29,263 nucleotides of DNA from a virus: IMG/VR virus record IMGVR_UViG_3300045988_090152, positions 1 through 29,263 of that record. One strand, 5' to 3'. Position 1 is the first letter of the stretch. Every line of letters begins with the position of its first letter. The position numbers and the translations under genes are program-made. Shown one piece after another: positions 16,893 to 27,962 of the stretch. Below the pieces are notes generated by a model. The model saw nothing but the letters and a program-made list of their open reading frames with translations. It was not told the origin of the DNA and made no database searches.

Positions 16893-19226
16893 CTAGAATG
16901 AAGCATTAGATTCAGTAACTGCTACCTTAGTTTGAGCTGAAGTAATATCAGATTCAACAACATAACACTTAACTGGATTATTAAGTTCATCAGTCTCTTT
17001 ATTTCCAAGTAAGTTTCGAGTATACTCAACAGGAGCTTGTGTGAGTGCAGATGGTGCTGCTGTTGCAGCTTCACTGCTAGCTCCTCCAGAAGAAGGCAAT
17101 TGTTCATTCTGGATAGCCTTAACATTAGCAAGACCTGCAATAACTGCTGTAGCTGCTGCAATAGGTGCCAGAATAGGACCAACAAACGGAATACCTACCA
17201 TAGACTTATATGCAGATTGAGCAGATGAAATCGTATCAATAATAGCTTGAGTAGTAGCTAATGCTTTATAAGCTTTAAATGATCTTTCTCTTTGTTTCTC
17301 AGATTTAGAATCATCACTTGCTTCTTGTTTAAATACATTTGCTAAAGCTCCAGATAAAGATGATGCAACATTCATTGTAGCTTGTATAGCTTGCTGTTTC
17401 TTTGCTTGTCTATCTTTAAATGCTTGTAAATCTGCTTCTTCTCGCTCATTTCTAGCTTGGTCTATTGCAATGTTATTTGCTTCCTGTTGAAGTTTAATAG
17501 CCTGAGATTGATTTGCATACTCCTGTTCTGTAATAAGCTTATTGTTATACTGCTCATTAAGAATCTGCTGTTGCTGATTCATCAACTCATTCTCTCTATC
17601 AATTCTTTCTTTAGTGAGATTATAGATTTGCTCATTATATGCAATAGTGTCTTGGAATTGTTTATTTACATCTTCTCCAGACTGATAGAAATCAGTAGAA
17701 CGAAATTGTCTAACTTGAGTTTCATAACTTCCAGACATTCCTGCATTTAAAGCAGCTTCTTTATTTGCAAATAACTGAGACTCTCTAGATTGCATCTCTT
17801 GTAAAGCTGCAAGTCTATTTTCTAAATCAGTACGATAACGTTCATTATTGTTATCTAACCATTCTTTATCATAGGCATCATTTATTTGCTTTAATCTCTT
17901 TCTATATTCCTCAACTGTTATAAGCTCTTTATCTTTAGCTGTTTTAAGAGCATCTAATTGATTTTGATATTTGGTATTTAATTCATCTAACTCTCTAGCT
18001 TCATCATCTAATAGCAGTTTTCTATTCTCTTCATAGAAATCATTGATAACCTTCAGTAAATCAGCGTTACGTTTCTTTGCATCTTCAATATTCTTTAGAT
18101 AGTTAGCCTTAGCCTCTTCTCTGGCTTTACGCTCTGCAGAGATTTCCATCAGTTTAATCTTTTCATAAGTTTCTGAAGTTTTCTGCATTAAACTATTTCT
18201 CTTCTCTATATATGCATTGTAGATACCAGAAGCTTCGTCGTAAGCAGCTCTTTGATCATCATTTAACTTACTTAAAAAGAAATCAACTTCATTAGAACTA
18301 GTTTTTAATCCTCATTGTATAGCTTGTGAATACTCCTCCCAAGTGTCATATCCAGATTTCTTAAACTCTTTTCTGAAGTATTTATTACTCTTAAGTATAT
18401 CTGTAAATGAATCATTATATGCTTTAGTTACACTTCCAAATTGCTGGAATAATTTAGCATCTAATTCACCTAATGCTTGAGCATAATCCTTTCAGATTTG
18501 TATTTCATTCTTTTTACCTTCAGCTAAATCTCTTTCTCTCTGTCTTTCTAATCCTGCAATTTCTGTATTAGCTTGTGCATAGCTAGTTCCTCATTGGTCT
18601 GTTATGTCTTTTAACCCTGAAATACTAATTTTTAAATCATCAACTCCAGATGCTGCTTTGATTGCAAAGTCTACTAACATTCCTAATGCTACTACTAATG
18701 CTCCAATACCTGTTGATATAATAGCAGTTCGTAGCACTCCCATCGCAACAGATAAACCTCCAGTAGCAGTCGTAGCACCAGCCATCGCAACAGATAAAGC
18801 CTTAAATGATTTTACTCCATTAAGAATACCTTCACCTAAACCCTTTAATCCTCCAATTCCTTGAACTATAGCAATAGCTGCTTGAAGCTTAACCATAGTT
18901 TTCTGGAGATTCTCTGTATCTCTTCCAAATAAAGTAAATGCAGCACTTACAGCCGAAACTCCACCTGCAAGACCGCCAGCTACTTGGTTAATACTATCAA
19001 AAGCTTTAACTGCATTTACAGTCTTACCTTGCATAGATTCAGTAGCTACATTAAGCTTGTTTTGTGCACTTACAAGCTCTTCAAGTTTTTTGGAATAGTC
19101 AGAACTACCAATTTCCAATGATTCAAGTTCGTCAGTCAAGCCAGCTACTTGTTCTCGTAGCTGCTTGATTGACTTTGTACTTTTAGTAGTATCTATATCT
19201 ATTACCTTTTTAATTTCTTCAGCCAT
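16893..19226 (-). CDS. tape-measure-like protein (777 aa, three TGA-Trp)
   Basis: Track ORFs 18591-19226 and 16893-18188 are in the same frame. The 402-nt gap translates cleanly with TGA at 18591, 18492 and 18312. Long coiled-coil stretches plus Gly/Ala-rich hydrophobic segments (GGLAGGVSAVSAAFTLFG, ISTGIGALVVALGMLV, VGIPFVGPILAPIAAATAVIAGLANV). TAG stop. Confidence 0.7.
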
Positions 19227-22679: not shown

Positions 22680-24884
22680 TTATTTTCTATATTTATCTTG
22701 AGAACTTTGTACTTCTATAGTATAATAAAACATATTTTTACCCTGATTACTATATGTCTTATACTCACAACTATTATTAGTAATTATTACAGGAATAATC
22801 TTATTATCCTCCAGATTATGTAAATATACCATAGTAGATTCTAATAAATGGTGCATCTTTGATGCTTGAGTATTTGTAAGATAATTAGTATATAAAGTCC
22901 ATTCTGGAACTATAGTGTTTAAATACTTATTTTTACTAAACTGAGAAGTGGTATTTAATACCTTTCTTACATAAGTCTGAGATTCAATTTGATCCGTTTG
23001 TTTAACATTACCTTGTACTAATAAACTATCCCATCCTCCATAAGCATTAGTATAATATAATACATAATTCTTATTAGTAGTATCAATCTGATAATTAATA
23101 GTTGTAGTAAAAGAGCCAGATTCAACAAATCCTATTTCATATTTACTCTTGCATTCCAAAAGTAAATTACCTAAAGGTTCTGCATAAGTATAACCATTAA
23201 TTCCTTGTCTTAATGTAATATCTACAGTAGTTGCTACTCCTTCAGGTGTAGTATAACGTCTATTAAGCACACCTTCACCAGTTGGGAATATCCAACTACA
23301 TAATACATACTGTCTTGAATCAACTAAAGTGTCAATAGGATCACTTAAGAAATAAGGCTTAGTTAAATCTGTATCTTTATAAGACCAATCATTAAAGAAT
23401 GTTACAGGCTTTTCACTACCGCTTGAAGTTATTAATGTAAAGGTTTTTAAATAGTTAGGTATAATTTCTGTCTTTCCAAAAGATGGAAATATAATGCCGT
23501 TATCTAAAAAGTCTTCAGATACATCATTAAGTAAAAATTGTACTCCTGTAGTATCAGGATATTTATAAGCTTTACCAGCATAAATAGTATCTCCTGCATA
23601 ATCAAGATGATATTCTATAAAATCATTTAAAGTTTCCTCTTCTCATATATAATCTTTCCATATTGGAGATATATCTGCTTTAACCTCTTGTACAATATTA
23701 AATGAAGTATTTATAACACTAGAGCCATTTTTTACTACTGTAACTCCGACTGTTGCTTTTCTTGAAGCATTACCTGTATTTTCTGTAGCATCAAAATTGA
23801 TACTTACAATATTCATACCTCCTGGAGTTCCTCTTTCTATTACTAACTCCATTTTACTTAACCAAGTCTGAGCATCTGCTGGAATTGCAAATACTACATC
23901 ATCTAAATTATCTGAGCCTGTACCATCTATCTTATATCTTCCTGCTGTATATCCAATACTAACACTGGACTTTAAAGATAAAGAAGTAGCTAACTTAGTA
24001 ATTGGAACTGTAGCATTTAATGTATATCCTCCAGAAGTTGTTGCAGTAACTAATGCAGCATAATTTTTAATACTGGTTGTAGCATTATCAGGAAAGCTAA
24101 TATTAAAGGTATTTAATGCAGTATTTTTTCCTATTCCAATACTTCCTGGACAATTAATATCAAATTCAGTAATTGCTTCATCTGTTACTGTAGTTGACAA
24201 TTGAAATTGTCCTGTAGTATTAGATGCAGCTCCATAAGTTCCAGATGATGGATTAACTATTAACTTCAAATCTTCTGGAATATCACTCTTTTCAATAGTA
24301 AAGCCATAACTATAAGAAATAAACTTATTAGTTTCATAATAAGCTCCTAATTGAATAGTTCCAGTAAGATTAGTATTTCATTGAGTATTAGCATCTACTG
24401 TAATCTTAAACTTAATAGAGCAGGAATCCCATTCTAATACCTCAACACTTACTAAAGCAGTAGCATTTACTACATCACAAGTTCATTTAATAATATCTGT
24501 TCTACTTAATATATATTCAACAGTATAAGTACCTCCAGTATTGGGCACTGTTATACTGCCATTTGCAGGATAATATCCAGGGGCTTTACTATGAAGATAA
24601 ACTGGCATAGTATCTTCCAATAAAGCAGTAGTATGTCCTCTTGGATAGAATCTGAATATTGTAGAAGAGTCTGTTGTAATCGTTGAGGGATTTCTAAAGT
24701 TAATAGTACAACCACTTGTACTTGCATTAGAAATAGTAACATCTAATGGACCCTCTTCTGAATAGTCATCTCCTCATAACCAATAATCATATACTCCTGT
24801 AAGACCCCATCCTGGATTTTCCCATTTAACAGGATATGTTCCTGTACTTCTTGGTATTCCTAATTTACTTGGTATAAATGTCAT
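22680..24884 (-). CDS. large virion protein with BACON/Ig-like central domain (734 aa, four TGA-Trp)
   Basis: ATG 24884 (MTFIPSKLGIPRSTGTYPVKWENPGWGLTGVYDYWL-W-GDDY...). TGA at 24774, 24483, 24378 and 23643. Joins track ORFs 23643-24269 and 22680-23270 in frame. The segment ...QTWLSKMELVIERGTPGGMNIVSINFDATENTGNASRKATVGVTVVKNGSS...IVQE resembles the BACON signature (W.L ... N.g..sR.a.v.v ... Q). Confidence 0.65.
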
Positions 24885-24886
24885 TT

Positions 24887-25366
24887 TTAAAAGTCTTTAA
24901 ATACATTATTAACTTGCGTTTCTAAATCTTTTGTAATTGCATCATCTAACAATGCAACAGCCGAAAGCTCATCTAAAGATTCTTCTAATATACGCTTTCC
25001 TTGTGTTCCTTGTAAATGAATCTTTCTTGCAACTAAGTATGCAAGTTGATCTGTAGATGGAAGTTTACCTCCATAAGGTCTTGGTAATACAGGTTTAGTT
25101 CTTACCCAATTCTTTATTTCACTAATAGGTGGAAATTTACCTGGAGATCTACCTTCTTCCAAATACTTTCAGTAATCTTGAATTTGTAAGCTGACTTCAT
25201 AAGATCCATCTTGATCCTCAACAATATAGTTTAAAGTATTACCTAATGTACCTGTATCATCAGCATTATTCTGTAATAACTTCTGTCTATATATTGAAGT
25301 CAATTGACTTCCATATTGTCTTAGTACTCCTTCAAGATTAGGGAATTTTAAATCTTGACTTGTCAT
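24887..25366 (-). CDS. virion morphogenesis/tail-completion-like protein (159 aa, one TGA-Trp)
   Basis: Track ORFs 25169-25366 and 24887-25162 are in the same frame: ...SLQIQDY-W-KYLEEGRSPGKFPPISEIKNWV... Loosely reminiscent of HK97 gp10-type proteins (Y..E.G). First gene after the terminator and element C. Confidence 0.55.
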
Positions 25367-25406: not shown

Positions 25407-25446
25407 AAAAAAGCAAGGGAGATTTTTACTCCCTTGCAACTTTTTT
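25407..25446. terminator. rho-independent terminator (hairpin flanked by A6 and T6)
   Basis: 9-bp stem GCAAGGGAG (25413-25421) / CTCCCTTGC (25429-25437), 7-nt loop. On the minus strand it is followed directly by TTTTTT (25412-25407). Confidence 0.7.
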
Positions 25447-25485: not shown

Positions 25486-25803
25486 TTAGTGTCTCCTCTT
25501 TCACTCTTCTATTTGTCTTTTTTCTTCATTTCCTTTATCTATTAGATAACATATAATATTAAGAAACTCTTGAATATACATATCATAGACTTGATGCCAA
25601 TTTAATCTTGTAACTTCACTAACTCTGTCTATTCAACAAACCCAGTTCCATTTTGCACCAAACTCACTGTTTTCCGAGACTGAACGATCATCTTCCTTAA
25701 TTGATACTTCTTCACTGGATCTTTCTCCTTCTTCAGCATCTTCTTCATCTCCCTTATTGAAGAGATTAGGGTACTGACTGTTAATGCTGCTAATAGATTG
25801 CAA
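25486..25803 (-). CDS. -1 frame extension ORF (105 codons, no start codon), candidate frameshift product C-terminus
   Basis: Open from the T9 run to TAA 25486-25488 when TGA 25633 and 25501 are read as Trp. Upstream, the -1 frame has TAA twice within about 20 codons and no ATG. Translation: LQSISSINSQYPNLFNKGDEEDAEEGERSSEEVSIKEDDRSVSENSEFGAKWNWVCWIDRVSEVTRLNWHQVYDMYIQEFLNIICYLIDKGNEEKRQIEEWKRRH. Confidence 0.5.
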
Positions 25804-26288
25804 AAAAAAACCATAATGTCATTTATGACAGTAATTGGAATTTTATCATATAACTTATCTGCCAATTCAATTAAATCATAGCCTTCATTATATTTCTTAC
25901 CTTTTGGAATTAAGAAGCATAAAAAGATATATTTAAAATTCTTTTGGTAGTCTTTATAAAAGTTCTGAAAATCTATATATTGAGCAGCAGTCATCTGCCT
26001 AATATTTAATTGTACAGTATATTTATCTCCAGCAATAGTATATTCAGTTTCTGGAGCCTTAGCTTTGTATTTATTGATTATAAATTGAACTTTATTAAGT
26101 TCTACAGCTAGTTCATCTAACCCTATACTCAAAAGAGTATCTCTTGTTTTATCTGGATCATCTGAAAGTAATGCACATATCTCAATACTTCTATCTAAAT
26201 CAGTCATCTTTGCATTACTGTTTATAAACTCCATTAGAGCTTCATATTGTTTAAGACTTACGTCTTCCCATTTAGTTGCTATATTCAT
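25629..26288 (-). CDS. chaperone-like protein, zero-frame product (219 aa)
   Basis: ATG 26288-26286 overlaps the terL TAA (TAATG). TAG stop at 25629-25631. The segment LNIRQMTAAQYIDFQNFYKD loosely recalls tail-assembly-chaperone families (recollection only). Contains the T9 run at 25810-25802. Confidence 0.55.
   Translation of the reverse strand: MNIATKWEDVSLKQYEALMEFINSNAKMTDLDRSIEICALLSDDPDKTRDTLLSIGLDELAVELNKVQFIINKYKAKAPETEYTIAGDKYTVQLNIRQMTAAQYIDFQNFYKDYQKNFKYIFLCFLIPKGKKYNEGYDLIELADKLYDKIPITVINDIMVFFCNLLAALTVSTLISSIREMKKMLKKEKDPVKKYQLRKMIVQSRKTVSLVQNGTGFVE
25802..25811 (-). other. slippery homopolymer (G TTT TTT TTT, U9) in X XXY YYZ register
   Basis: Plus-strand A9 at 25802-25810. 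Zero-frame codons are GTT TTT TTT TGC. Confidence 0.6.
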
Positions 26289-27535
26289 TATTTAATTGCA
26301 ATATTATAAGTTCCTTTATTTGTATTTAAAGCATCATAAGCTAACATTAAAGATATACAAGTATCATCATTAAATCCAGATGGAGCATTATATGATACAT
26401 TTCCAGTCTTTGGATTATAACTGGCTTCATATAGTCTTAATTCATTTAATAGTTTATCATCCTTTAAAATACCAATCTTTTCATTTTCTAATGCAGCTTG
26501 TAGCTTATTTACAATAGCTGCCTTAGACTTATTAGTAGTTAAAAACTTAACTATCCGTAATTTAGGATTCCTTTTTACAAGAATATCATAAAACACTGAA
26601 CCTATTGAGTTTTGTTCGACTTGAACTATCTTTATAAATCCCTGATACTCAGTAAATATATTTGTCAGTAAATCAACTTGTTCTGTTGGAGTTTTGTCGT
26701 TAAAATACTTTATAAAGACCATCTGCCCATTTTCATTTAAAGCTGTAATACAAGTATAGTCTTTACCAGAACCAGTAGCCCAGTCAACTCCAATATAAAG
26801 ATTATGATATTCAGGTTTTTTATCAATTATGCAGTTAGATATATTATTAAAGAGACAACCATCATCATCTGCAAACTCCCCAAGATATTCAGTTCTAAAT
26901 TTATTTTTAGAGGTTGTAAGGCGATACATTTCAAGTTTATCCTCACTCAATAGCATAGAGGTATCTTCTAATGCTCAATCAAAGGATTGATAATATTTGC
27001 TAAAATTGCCATCAAAGCCTTTTTTAAAGCATTCATAAAAGAATCCTTCTCTAAACCTTGGAGTACTAATTATAAGTATCGGAGCATTCCATACATCAGT
27101 GGTAGGCTTAATAATTTCAAATACTTCATCTTTAAGATAAGCTGCCTCATCAAGTACTAATAATCCACTAACGGAGAATCCTCGTAATGAATCCATTTGT
27201 TCTCCAGATCTAAATAGTATAGAACTGCCATTATTAAACTCTAATTCTAATAAGGTTTCATTCTTTCTTCTTAATATATCAGAGTCTATAACAGCTTGTA
27301 CAAGTTCTTTAAATACCTTTCTAGATTGTCCAAGAGTTGGTTCAACTATACAATTAACACTCCCAGGATAATTTATAGCGAATCTCAATAATTCATTTTC
27401 TGCCAAGAACGATTTACCTACCTGCCTCTTTGCTTTAATTGTAAAGATTTTACCAGACCTATATGAGTCATTCATAGCAGTATGTACCTTTAATTGATAG
27501 ATAAATGGGCTATATCCTTTATATATTTTTGTCAT
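26288..27535 (-). CDS. terL: terminase large subunit (one TGA-Trp at the ATPase/nuclease junction)
   Basis: Track ORF 26975-27571 has Walker A KAKRQVGKS and Walker B LLVLDEAAY. Track ORF 26288-26956 has nuclease-type IGVDWATGSGKDYT ... SGFNDDTC. The two are in the same frame and joined by TGA 26975-26977 (...YYQSFD-W-ALEDTSMLLSEDK...). Start taken at ATG 27535 (MTKIYKGY, 17-nt overlap with terS); ATG 27571 is an alternative. Confidence 0.85.
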
Positions 27536-27962
27536 TGTTAATTGGATCTCCAAATTTAAACTGGACTTCATTATTCTGAATAGCTACAATAGTCTCAGGT
27601 TGATTTAATCCAAACATACTATTTATAGTCTTAATAATCTCATTTGCAGCTCTAATATCTCCCTTACTAATAGCAGTATCCAGTAATGATTCCAATCTTG
27701 ATAATTGTATATGTCTAAGATTTTTTATAAGGTTATCATTCTTTTCAGCAATTATCTTATAAGCTTCTCCAATATATCTTGCAGCCGTTGATTGGCTTAC
27801 ATTATATTTACTTTGAAGTTCTTCACTTACTTTATTCCTTGACCATCCTTTGTTAAATAACCTTGCAGCATAAAGATATTTAGTCTTTACTTCGTCTATT
27901 TGTTCCTTTTCTACCTCTGCCTTTTTCGGTCTCCCTACTTTCTTCTTTATTTGCTCCTTCAT
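27519..27962 (-). CDS. terS: terminase small subunit-like DNA-binding protein
   Basis: The track start at 27968 is a TTG; the first ATG is at 27962 (MKEQIKKKVGRPKK...). Basic N-terminus plus HTH-like WSRNKVSEELQSKYNVSQSTAARYI. Immediately upstream of terL. Confidence 0.6.
   Translation of the reverse strand: MKEQIKKKVGRPKKAEVEKEQIDEVKTKYLYAARLFNKGWSRNKVSEELQSKYNVSQSTAARYIGEAYKIIAEKNDNLIKNLRHIQLSRLESLLDTAISKGDIRAANEIIKTINSMFGLNQPETIVAIQNNEVQFKFGDPINNDKNI

Follow-up and report, generated by a model that had tools for sequence, protein, structure and literature searches.

The stretch of viral DNA studied here (IMG/VR record IMGVR_UViG_3300045988_090152, positions 1 to 29,263; hereafter the window) comes from a phage of ~30 kb. 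Directly after its terminase gene, terL, lies a gene that we call gene X. We report that gene X is almost certainly recoded at a run of nine T's, yielding a 219-aa short form and a 267-aa long form. The two products share residues 1-162 and then end in alternative C-terminal modules. A first reading made from the letters alone (the sequence-only reading) had proposed a single gene with products of 219 and about 267 aa, made through a programmed -1 shift; this proposal stood, and the run and both frames proved to be conserved in relatives. On balance, we favour the view that gene X is a programmed -1 recoding gene, in which shifting would be ribosomal with a supplement from RNA polymerase and the products would form a tail-assembly-chaperone-like pair.

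A run of nine T's leads into a long open -1 frame

On the coding (minus) strand the site reads ATG GTT TTT TTT TGC, and its plus-strand counterpart, A9 at 25802-25810, is the longest homopolymer of the window. The sequence-only reading had described it as a U9 in the X_XXY_YYZ register of the zero frame, and all the positions that it gave were recovered when we re-read the window. The zero frame runs from the ATG at 26288 to a TAG at 25631-25629, the stop lying 57 codons past the shift site as had been claimed. Upstream of the run the -1 frame is closed by TAA codons at 25845-25843 and 25857-25855. The earlier reading had found two such stops and no ATG; we found neither ATG nor GTG nor TTG in the -1 frame between the closing TAA and the run. 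From 25803 onwards the -1 frame stays open for 105 codons, up to the TAA at 25488-25486, provided that two TGA codons within it are read as Trp, a proviso that had been left implicit. The elements of gene X are the following (ORF, open reading frame).

25629-26288, minus strand: gene X, zero frame (short form), 219 aa, made of an N-domain (residues 1-162) and a 57-residue tail, ending at TAG 25631-25629
25802-25810, minus strand: T9 run (U9 in the mRNA, A9 on the plus strand), zero frame GTT TTT TTT TGC
25803-25809, minus strand: in-register X_XXY_YYZ heptamer T_TTT_TTT, covering Phe161 and Phe162; the next codon after the shift is TTG 25803-25801
25486-25803, minus strand: -1 frame extension, 105 codons, ending at TAA 25488-25486; long form 162 + 105 = 267 aa
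25629-25803, minus strand: dual-coding overlap, ~58 codons, one purine-rich tract whose zero-frame product is Lys-rich and whose -1-frame product is Glu/Asp-rich
25633-25635, minus strand: first in-frame TGA of the extension, Trp57 of the -1 ORF
25501-25503, minus strand: second in-frame TGA of the extension, Trp101

The openness of the -1 ORF exceeds chance. The open stretch measures ~115 codons, whereas the 830 stop-free -1-frame stretches in the other 29 genes average 9.1 codons and reach at most 58, which bears out the earlier remark that so long a stretch was unlikely to arise by chance. Were the -1 ORF left out, a gap of 262 nt would appear, the largest in the minus-strand operon. The junction peptide predicted for the long form, ...DIMVFFLQSISS... 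(…VFFLQS…), is the same under the ribosomal and the polymerase routes.

Judging by its genes, the window phage reads TGA as Trp, because 25 TGA codons lie in frame inside otherwise continuous window genes, none of the 30 genes ends in TGA, and at the second TGA of the extension standard-code relatives, whose own ORF ends at a TGA stop, have a conserved Trp. Translated with genetic code table 11, the operon falls into fragments; with table 4 these join to form closely packed genes, among them a 427-aa terL and genes of 734, 1149 and 777 aa. No tRNA genes were found within the 29.3-kb window. Within gene X (25486-26288) the short form is free of TGA codons and the extension carries two, so that the long form would here require both the frameshift and the decoding of TGA as Trp, and the short form neither.

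Both frames are conserved in distant relatives

A word-based search gave ~30 homologs, mostly of 200-220 aa, that matched only the N-terminal two thirds of the fused query; their zero-frame tails were conserved even at ~30% identity. DNA of relatives was collected from Logan/ENA contigs, IMG/VR and GTDB genomes and scored with hidden Markov models (HMMs) of the N-domain and of the extension, which led to a census of 74 distinct sequence contexts, some of them ~25% identical. An extension homolog follows the N-domain in every locus, and in 69 of the 74 contexts it lies in the -1 frame. Comparison with homologous phages had been put forward as a check by the sequence-only reading: each of the two frames is conserved as protein down to ~25% identity, and all 69 contexts whose extension lies in the -1 frame have a T_TTT_TTN in register.

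The relatives comprise standard-code, TGA-recoded and TAG-recoded phages and include prophages in genome bins of Alistipes, Bacteroidales and Acutalibacteraceae. In one contig (L033:2938-3216) the -1 extension is broken only by three TAG codons and would be a normal member if TAG were a sense codon; this is probably a TAG-recoded phage. A profile search of 1.84 billion representatives brought the family to 4,217 members (E <= 1e-3), almost all as long as the short form; among the top 150, P0070 and P0161 have T10 and encode the long form in a single frame. Another sequence, P0022 (184 aa), joins N-domain residues ~56-148 (97% identical) to an unrelated HTH_3 (PF01381) protein and is probably a chimeric contig.

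A selection test was made on nine collinear sequences of the window's clade. Over the part that codes for the N-domain only, 171 of 477 sites are variable, 97 of them at the third codon position of the zero frame; over the part that codes for the extension only, 46 of 140 are variable, 30 of them at the third position of the -1 frame. Within the overlap, variable sites are 50 of 174 (29%) and spread flatly across codon positions (16, 11 and 23). The periodicity thus changes frame just where a real frameshift should make it do so, and the overlap is under constraint from both frames.

These comparisons bear on three ways of doing without a programmed shift. The sequence-only reading had itself raised a homopolymer error in sequencing or assembly, the true gene then being a single 267-aa ORF with T10. 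Homopolymers are error-prone and rare T10 entries do exist, but 69 of the 74 contexts, from many studies and assemblers, have T9 or an equivalent -1 arrangement; T9 itself was assembled independently dozens of times, also in loci of 55-63% GC where it is the sole homopolymer of at least 8. With a zero-frame tail that is conserved and structured and an overlap under dual constraint, this explanation has next to no chance of being correct. Scarcely more probable is a separate gene starting at the TTG at 25803-25801, although the ORF listing does call a 105-aa ORF from this TTG, and GenBank annotates the homologous tail in the Nonlabens phage P12024S (see below) as a separate gene. The frame is closed 14 codons upstream, no start codon lies ahead of the run, and conservation of the -1 frame sets in right at the run. 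The sequence-only reading had considered that relatives might give the -1 ORF a start of its own; no start is conserved, the first codon being TTG in the window and TAC, TCT, TGC or TTT in other lineages.

The five contexts outside the -1 arrangement have T10 (L040, L041 and L093), T7 (L001) or T8 (L002) and are nested among T9 sequences on the tree. They could suggest a heritable DNA switch, in which changes of run length from T9 to T10, T8 or T7 select alleles making mainly the short or mainly the long form. In its favour, all five of the 74 contexts are indel variants of T9 relatives, and both downstream frames are intact in those checked (L001, L002, L040 and L041). The variants are, however, rare singletons among T9 sequences, sequencing or assembly errors or transient mutants would look alike, and a phage that needs both products in every infection would gain nothing from it; we consider such a switch very unlikely. 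The indels map to L040:2981-2990, L041:2974-2983, L001:2240-2246 and L002:2496-2503, and could also be alleles that still yield both products by slippage.

Models of the alternative C-terminal modules

The short form and the extension were modelled separately; a joint MAFFT alignment with the fused sequence was discarded, as distant N-domains were misplaced in it. The AlphaFold model of the short form (pLDDT 90.8, pTM 0.80) places the shift site inside a long helix (residues 152-187) that is paired with a second helix (191-212). The 57-residue zero-frame tail, a hydrophobic and then Lys-rich helix, is confidently modelled as a helical hairpin. The sequence-only reading had allowed that this tail might be a mere shadow of the -1 frame, but its conservation as protein in distant relatives and its confident model speak against this. 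A membrane anchor was considered for the hydrophobic zero-frame helix of the window and rejected as a family role, distant relatives reading charged or polar at that place.

The extension starts with a short conserved motif, I..N..YPNLF, and is modelled as a disordered acidic linker (residues 17-45) followed by a confident three-helix domain (residues 47-104) with the motif W.W..ID.VSE.T..W..V..M.I.EF.NI..Y..DK..EK..IE.WK..H. Its structured part begins where the zero frame ends, the overlap thus pairing a Lys-rich zero-frame helix with an acidic disordered -1 linker. A sequence profile search of the PDB returned nothing significant, and Foldseek against the PDB returned generic helical hairpins only. 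Against BFVD, the short form matched ~30 uncharacterised phage proteins and the extension matched uncharacterised proteins only; one of these, A0A6J7WJY4, matches both models and is probably another single-ORF long form.

The same arrangement in a cultured phage

A fold-level homolog (Foldseek E 1.6e-7) was found in the cultured Nonlabens (Persicivirga) phage P12024S (JQ823122, L039 in our census; genus Inhavirus), with a sequence similarity below the reach of the N-domain and extension HMMs. As in the window, the homolog comes after terL, has a T9 in the same register and is followed by a -1 ORF with the family pattern; unlike the window phage, P12024S uses the standard genetic code. The region 23136-23830 is annotated as genes 38 and 39, two unrelated hypothetical proteins. 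Gene 38 is the short form and gene 39 the tail of the -1 ORF, and they are joined at the T9 at 23578-23586. When 50,697 phage records were searched by tblastn, neither the fused product of the window nor a central member of the family had any match, and in the same set the Nonlabens gene was matched only by Nonlabens phages. The structural gene layout of P12024S resembles that of the window, and we take this phage to be a siphovirus.

Ribosome or RNA polymerase at the slip site

Among the 69 contexts with the -1 arrangement the run is T9 in 58, T7 in eight, T6C in two and T8 in one. On the N-domain tree the 11 shorter runs represent at least eight independent lineages, and the way in which they were shortened is informative: among relatives of phase-0 T9 sequences the 5' T's were lost, among relatives of phase-2 sequences the 3' T's, and the heptamer was always spared. 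As the register is kept and slippage by the polymerase is blind to register, this points to the ribosome, and ribosomal -1 frameshifting is probably the mechanism common to the family. One context, seen in two contigs from different metagenomes (L097 and L098, junction ~1940-1975), reads T_TCT_TTT (GGT TCT TTT CTC); it is the only one without a full heptamer and is left with a U_UUU tetramer.

Several observations weigh against a purely ribosomal account. U_UUU_UUU is weakly shifty for E. coli ribosomes and a poor shift site in that species (PMC5009743). Downstream of the run, 19 diverse relatives share no stimulatory structure (z -1.9 to +1.2; upstream Shine-Dalgarno-like elements were not searched systematically). 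Nor is the excess of T9 accounted for by the need for a heptamer alone: the T9 runs occur in phases 0, 1 and 2 (20, 8 and 30 contexts), and T's outside the heptamer are kept in T9 lineages although the residues encoded there vary across the family.

These observations can be taken to mean that transcriptional slippage, which the sequence-only reading had not brought up, is the main or sole route, the polymerase adding one U at nine T's and the heptamer register being incidental. A run of 9 A or T is enough for bacterial RNA polymerase to slip efficiently, and its RNA:DNA hybrid measures 9-10 bp (PMC5009743), so that exactly nine T's, present in all three registers with flanking T's that the heptamer could dispense with, would match the length of the hybrid. 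No conserved downstream stimulator was found, and under bidirectional slippage both products would also come from the T10 alleles whose two frames are intact. What this explanation does not predict is the behaviour of the shorter runs. T6C, T7 and T8 are short for efficient polymerase slippage, all 11 such contexts are in the X_XXY_YYZ register, and the T's lost in at least eight independent shortenings always lay outside the heptamer, which a register-blind process has no reason to spare. We thus regard slippage by the polymerase as an unlikely main or sole mechanism. Because exactly nine T's predominate in all three registers, the sequences nevertheless suggest that it adds to the yield of the long form in T9 lineages, the window included.

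Similar slippage is described for Shigella mxiE and Thermus thermophilus dnaX (PMC5009743). As there, nine T's match the length of the hybrid, and no stimulatory RNA structure was found in the gene X family; the length of nine recurs in all three registers, in 58 of 69 contexts. Unlike these cases, gene X relatives with T6C, T7 or T8 keep the two-frame layout, and always in the ribosomal register.

In the scheme that we favour, in which the ribosome shifts and the polymerase contributes, standard decoding of gene X would give the 219-aa product, that is, the 162-residue N-domain and the helical Lys-rich tail. A -1 shift on U9 at Phe161-Phe162 would give the 267-aa product, in which the same N-domain is continued by the acidic flexible linker and the three-helix domain. 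Slippage of RNA polymerase at the nine T's would insert one extra U and so raise the amount of the long form. The two products may then act as a fixed-ratio pair in virion assembly, the shared N-domain holding one partner and the alternative C-termini engaging different ones.

The locus and its neighbours

The stop codon of terL overlaps the ATG of gene X (TAATG). The main features around gene X are listed below.

26288-27571, minus strand: terL, 427 aa with one TGA as Trp; phrog_2 (E 2.3e-38), Terminase_6N and Terminase_6C
25407-25437, minus strand: terminator-like hairpin of 9 bp (6 GC) with U6, 48 nt past the stop of the -1 ORF; -16.9 kcal/mol, z -4.6
24887-25366, minus strand: conserved neighbour of ~160 aa (159 aa here), downstream of gene X, weakly similar to the HK97 gp10 tail component
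16893-19226, minus strand: tape-measure-like gene, 777 aa; six tape-measure PHROGs, best E 3.5e-11

Structural genes occupy 5797-27968 of the minus strand in an unusual order: terS-like, terL, gene X, gp10-like, a 734-aa gene (weak BACON-domain match), an 1149-aa gene and the tape-measure-like gene, then protease, scaffold-like, major capsid and further genes, with the portal far downstream. The ~160-aa neighbour lies within 700 nt of gene X in 78 of 79 distinct loci. It carries the motif ATG.L..SL.Y...DYWKYVE.GR..GKFPP and matches PF04883 in two of eight members (E 0.021).

Comparison with tail assembly chaperones

The sequence-only reading had likened gene X to the tail assembly chaperones of long-tailed phages, for which the -1 frameshift of lambda gpG/gpGT is the conserved model (Levin 1993; Xu, Hendrix and Duda 2004; summarised in PMC5009743). 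The likeness holds for the two-product logic. Like the lambda pair, gene X has a short product and a -1-frameshifted long product with a common N-terminal part (in lambda the long form is the rarer); in both cases the arrangement persists among widely diverged phages, the extension forms a small domain of its own, and a tape-measure-like gene is present. In pairs of the G/GT type the tape-measure protein is bound by the short form and the tube protein by the extension, both forms being absent from the virion. The overlapping ORFs are joined by a conserved -1 slip, T_TTT_TTN being in register in 69 of 69 contexts, and among the window genes no other two-frame pair lies ahead of the tape-measure-like gene. 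Unlike gpG/gpGT, which is encoded between the tube and tape-measure genes, gene X comes after terL, and its slip site is a U9 homopolymer. The shift lies 57 codons before the zero-frame stop, so that there are ~58 dual-coding codons and alternative, individually conserved C-termini.

The P2 gpE/gpE+E' pair provides a second comparison. Both have a T-rich slip site in register (GGT TTT TTG in P2, xxT TTT TTN in the gene X family), and a common motif, tEDEvl-L-l-E---L-----FL, can be aligned in a non-significant hhalign match. In P2 this motif lies directly beside the slip site, at the C-terminal end of a protein of 91 aa, whereas in gene X it is found at residues 47-72 of the 162-residue N-domain; E, moreover, lies between the tube and tape-measure genes.

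A number of results weigh against a chaperone role. Gene X lies directly after terL and three genes (159, 734 and 1149 aa) away from the tape-measure-like gene, a position that the sequence-only reading had rightly called atypical, and the relatives have the same layout. The shift occurs at codon 162 of 219, and the long form loses the conserved, structured tail of 57 residues. When the window proteins were searched against Pfam and PHROGs, neither of the two frames, nor the fused product, could be assigned to a family. Comparison with the profiles of tail-assembly-chaperone families, a check that the sequence-only reading had proposed, did not lend the analogy significant support: PF10109 (Phage_TAC_7, P2 gpE type) is the only recurrent Pfam match (17 of 88 members, 4 of 28 in an earlier set), but its matches are weak (best E 3.7e-4) and all sub-threshold, and the window protein gives none. 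With hhalign, in which gpE was used as a single sequence and as a shallow profile (its homologs being all at least 79% identical), the comparison with P2 gpE was not significant, with probabilities of 1.2% and 3.7% over a 26-residue motif only. No solved structure matched gene X by PDB sequence or fold, and by these searches the gene X family has no Pfam, PHROG or PDB representative.

It is thus quite conceivable, if not what we would assume, that the frameshift is real and gene X is something else, namely a two-isoform morphogenesis or packaging accessory coupled to terL, acting for instance in head completion, with the terminase or in tail initiation. Such a role would fit the translational coupling to terL, which lies immediately upstream in at least 43 of 78 loci, as well as the position outside the expected chaperone location, the mid-gene shift that leads to alternative C-termini, and the lack of a significant sequence or fold link to known chaperones. 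Yet no family signal other than PF10109 recurs, the constant neighbour bears a weak likeness to HK97 gp10, a tail component, and a -1 frameshift giving two products in fixed ratio is the hallmark of the tail chaperones of long-tailed phages (PMC5009743). The phage, moreover, has a tape-measure-like gene and no other candidate chaperone pair. Taken together, these arguments leave a tail-assembly-chaperone-like function of gene X evenly balanced. The two-product -1 logic of the analogy thus stands, the position, the mid-gene shift and the sub-threshold family homology tell against it, and the label stays inferential; gene X would work like a G/GT pair while not being filed in any known chaperone family. 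More tentatively, gene X might represent an undescribed class of assembly chaperones that is coupled to terL, has alternative C-terminal modules and carries a signal tuned to both the ribosome (U_UUU_UUN) and the polymerase (nine T's). If so, the T7 and T6C lineages, which do not have the nine-T length, would depend on the ribosome alone.

What the frameshift means for the family

We found no published description of the gene X frameshift in the literature searched. The family of 4,217 cluster representatives (50% identity) is systematically mis-annotated, as a short hypothetical gene followed by a gap or a small orphan ORF; once the frameshift is recognised, a conserved protein of 260-270 aa is restored across the family. 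Its range extends from prophages of gut Bacteroidota and Firmicutes to phages of marine Flavobacteriia and phages in which TGA or TAG is reassigned. With T9 in three registers, and T7, T6C and T8 solely in the ribosomal register, these phages provide a natural experiment in which the roles of ribosome and polymerase are separable. If the chaperone role is true, gene X would relax two textbook rules, that the pair is encoded beside the tape-measure gene and that the long form keeps the whole short form and adds an extension to it.

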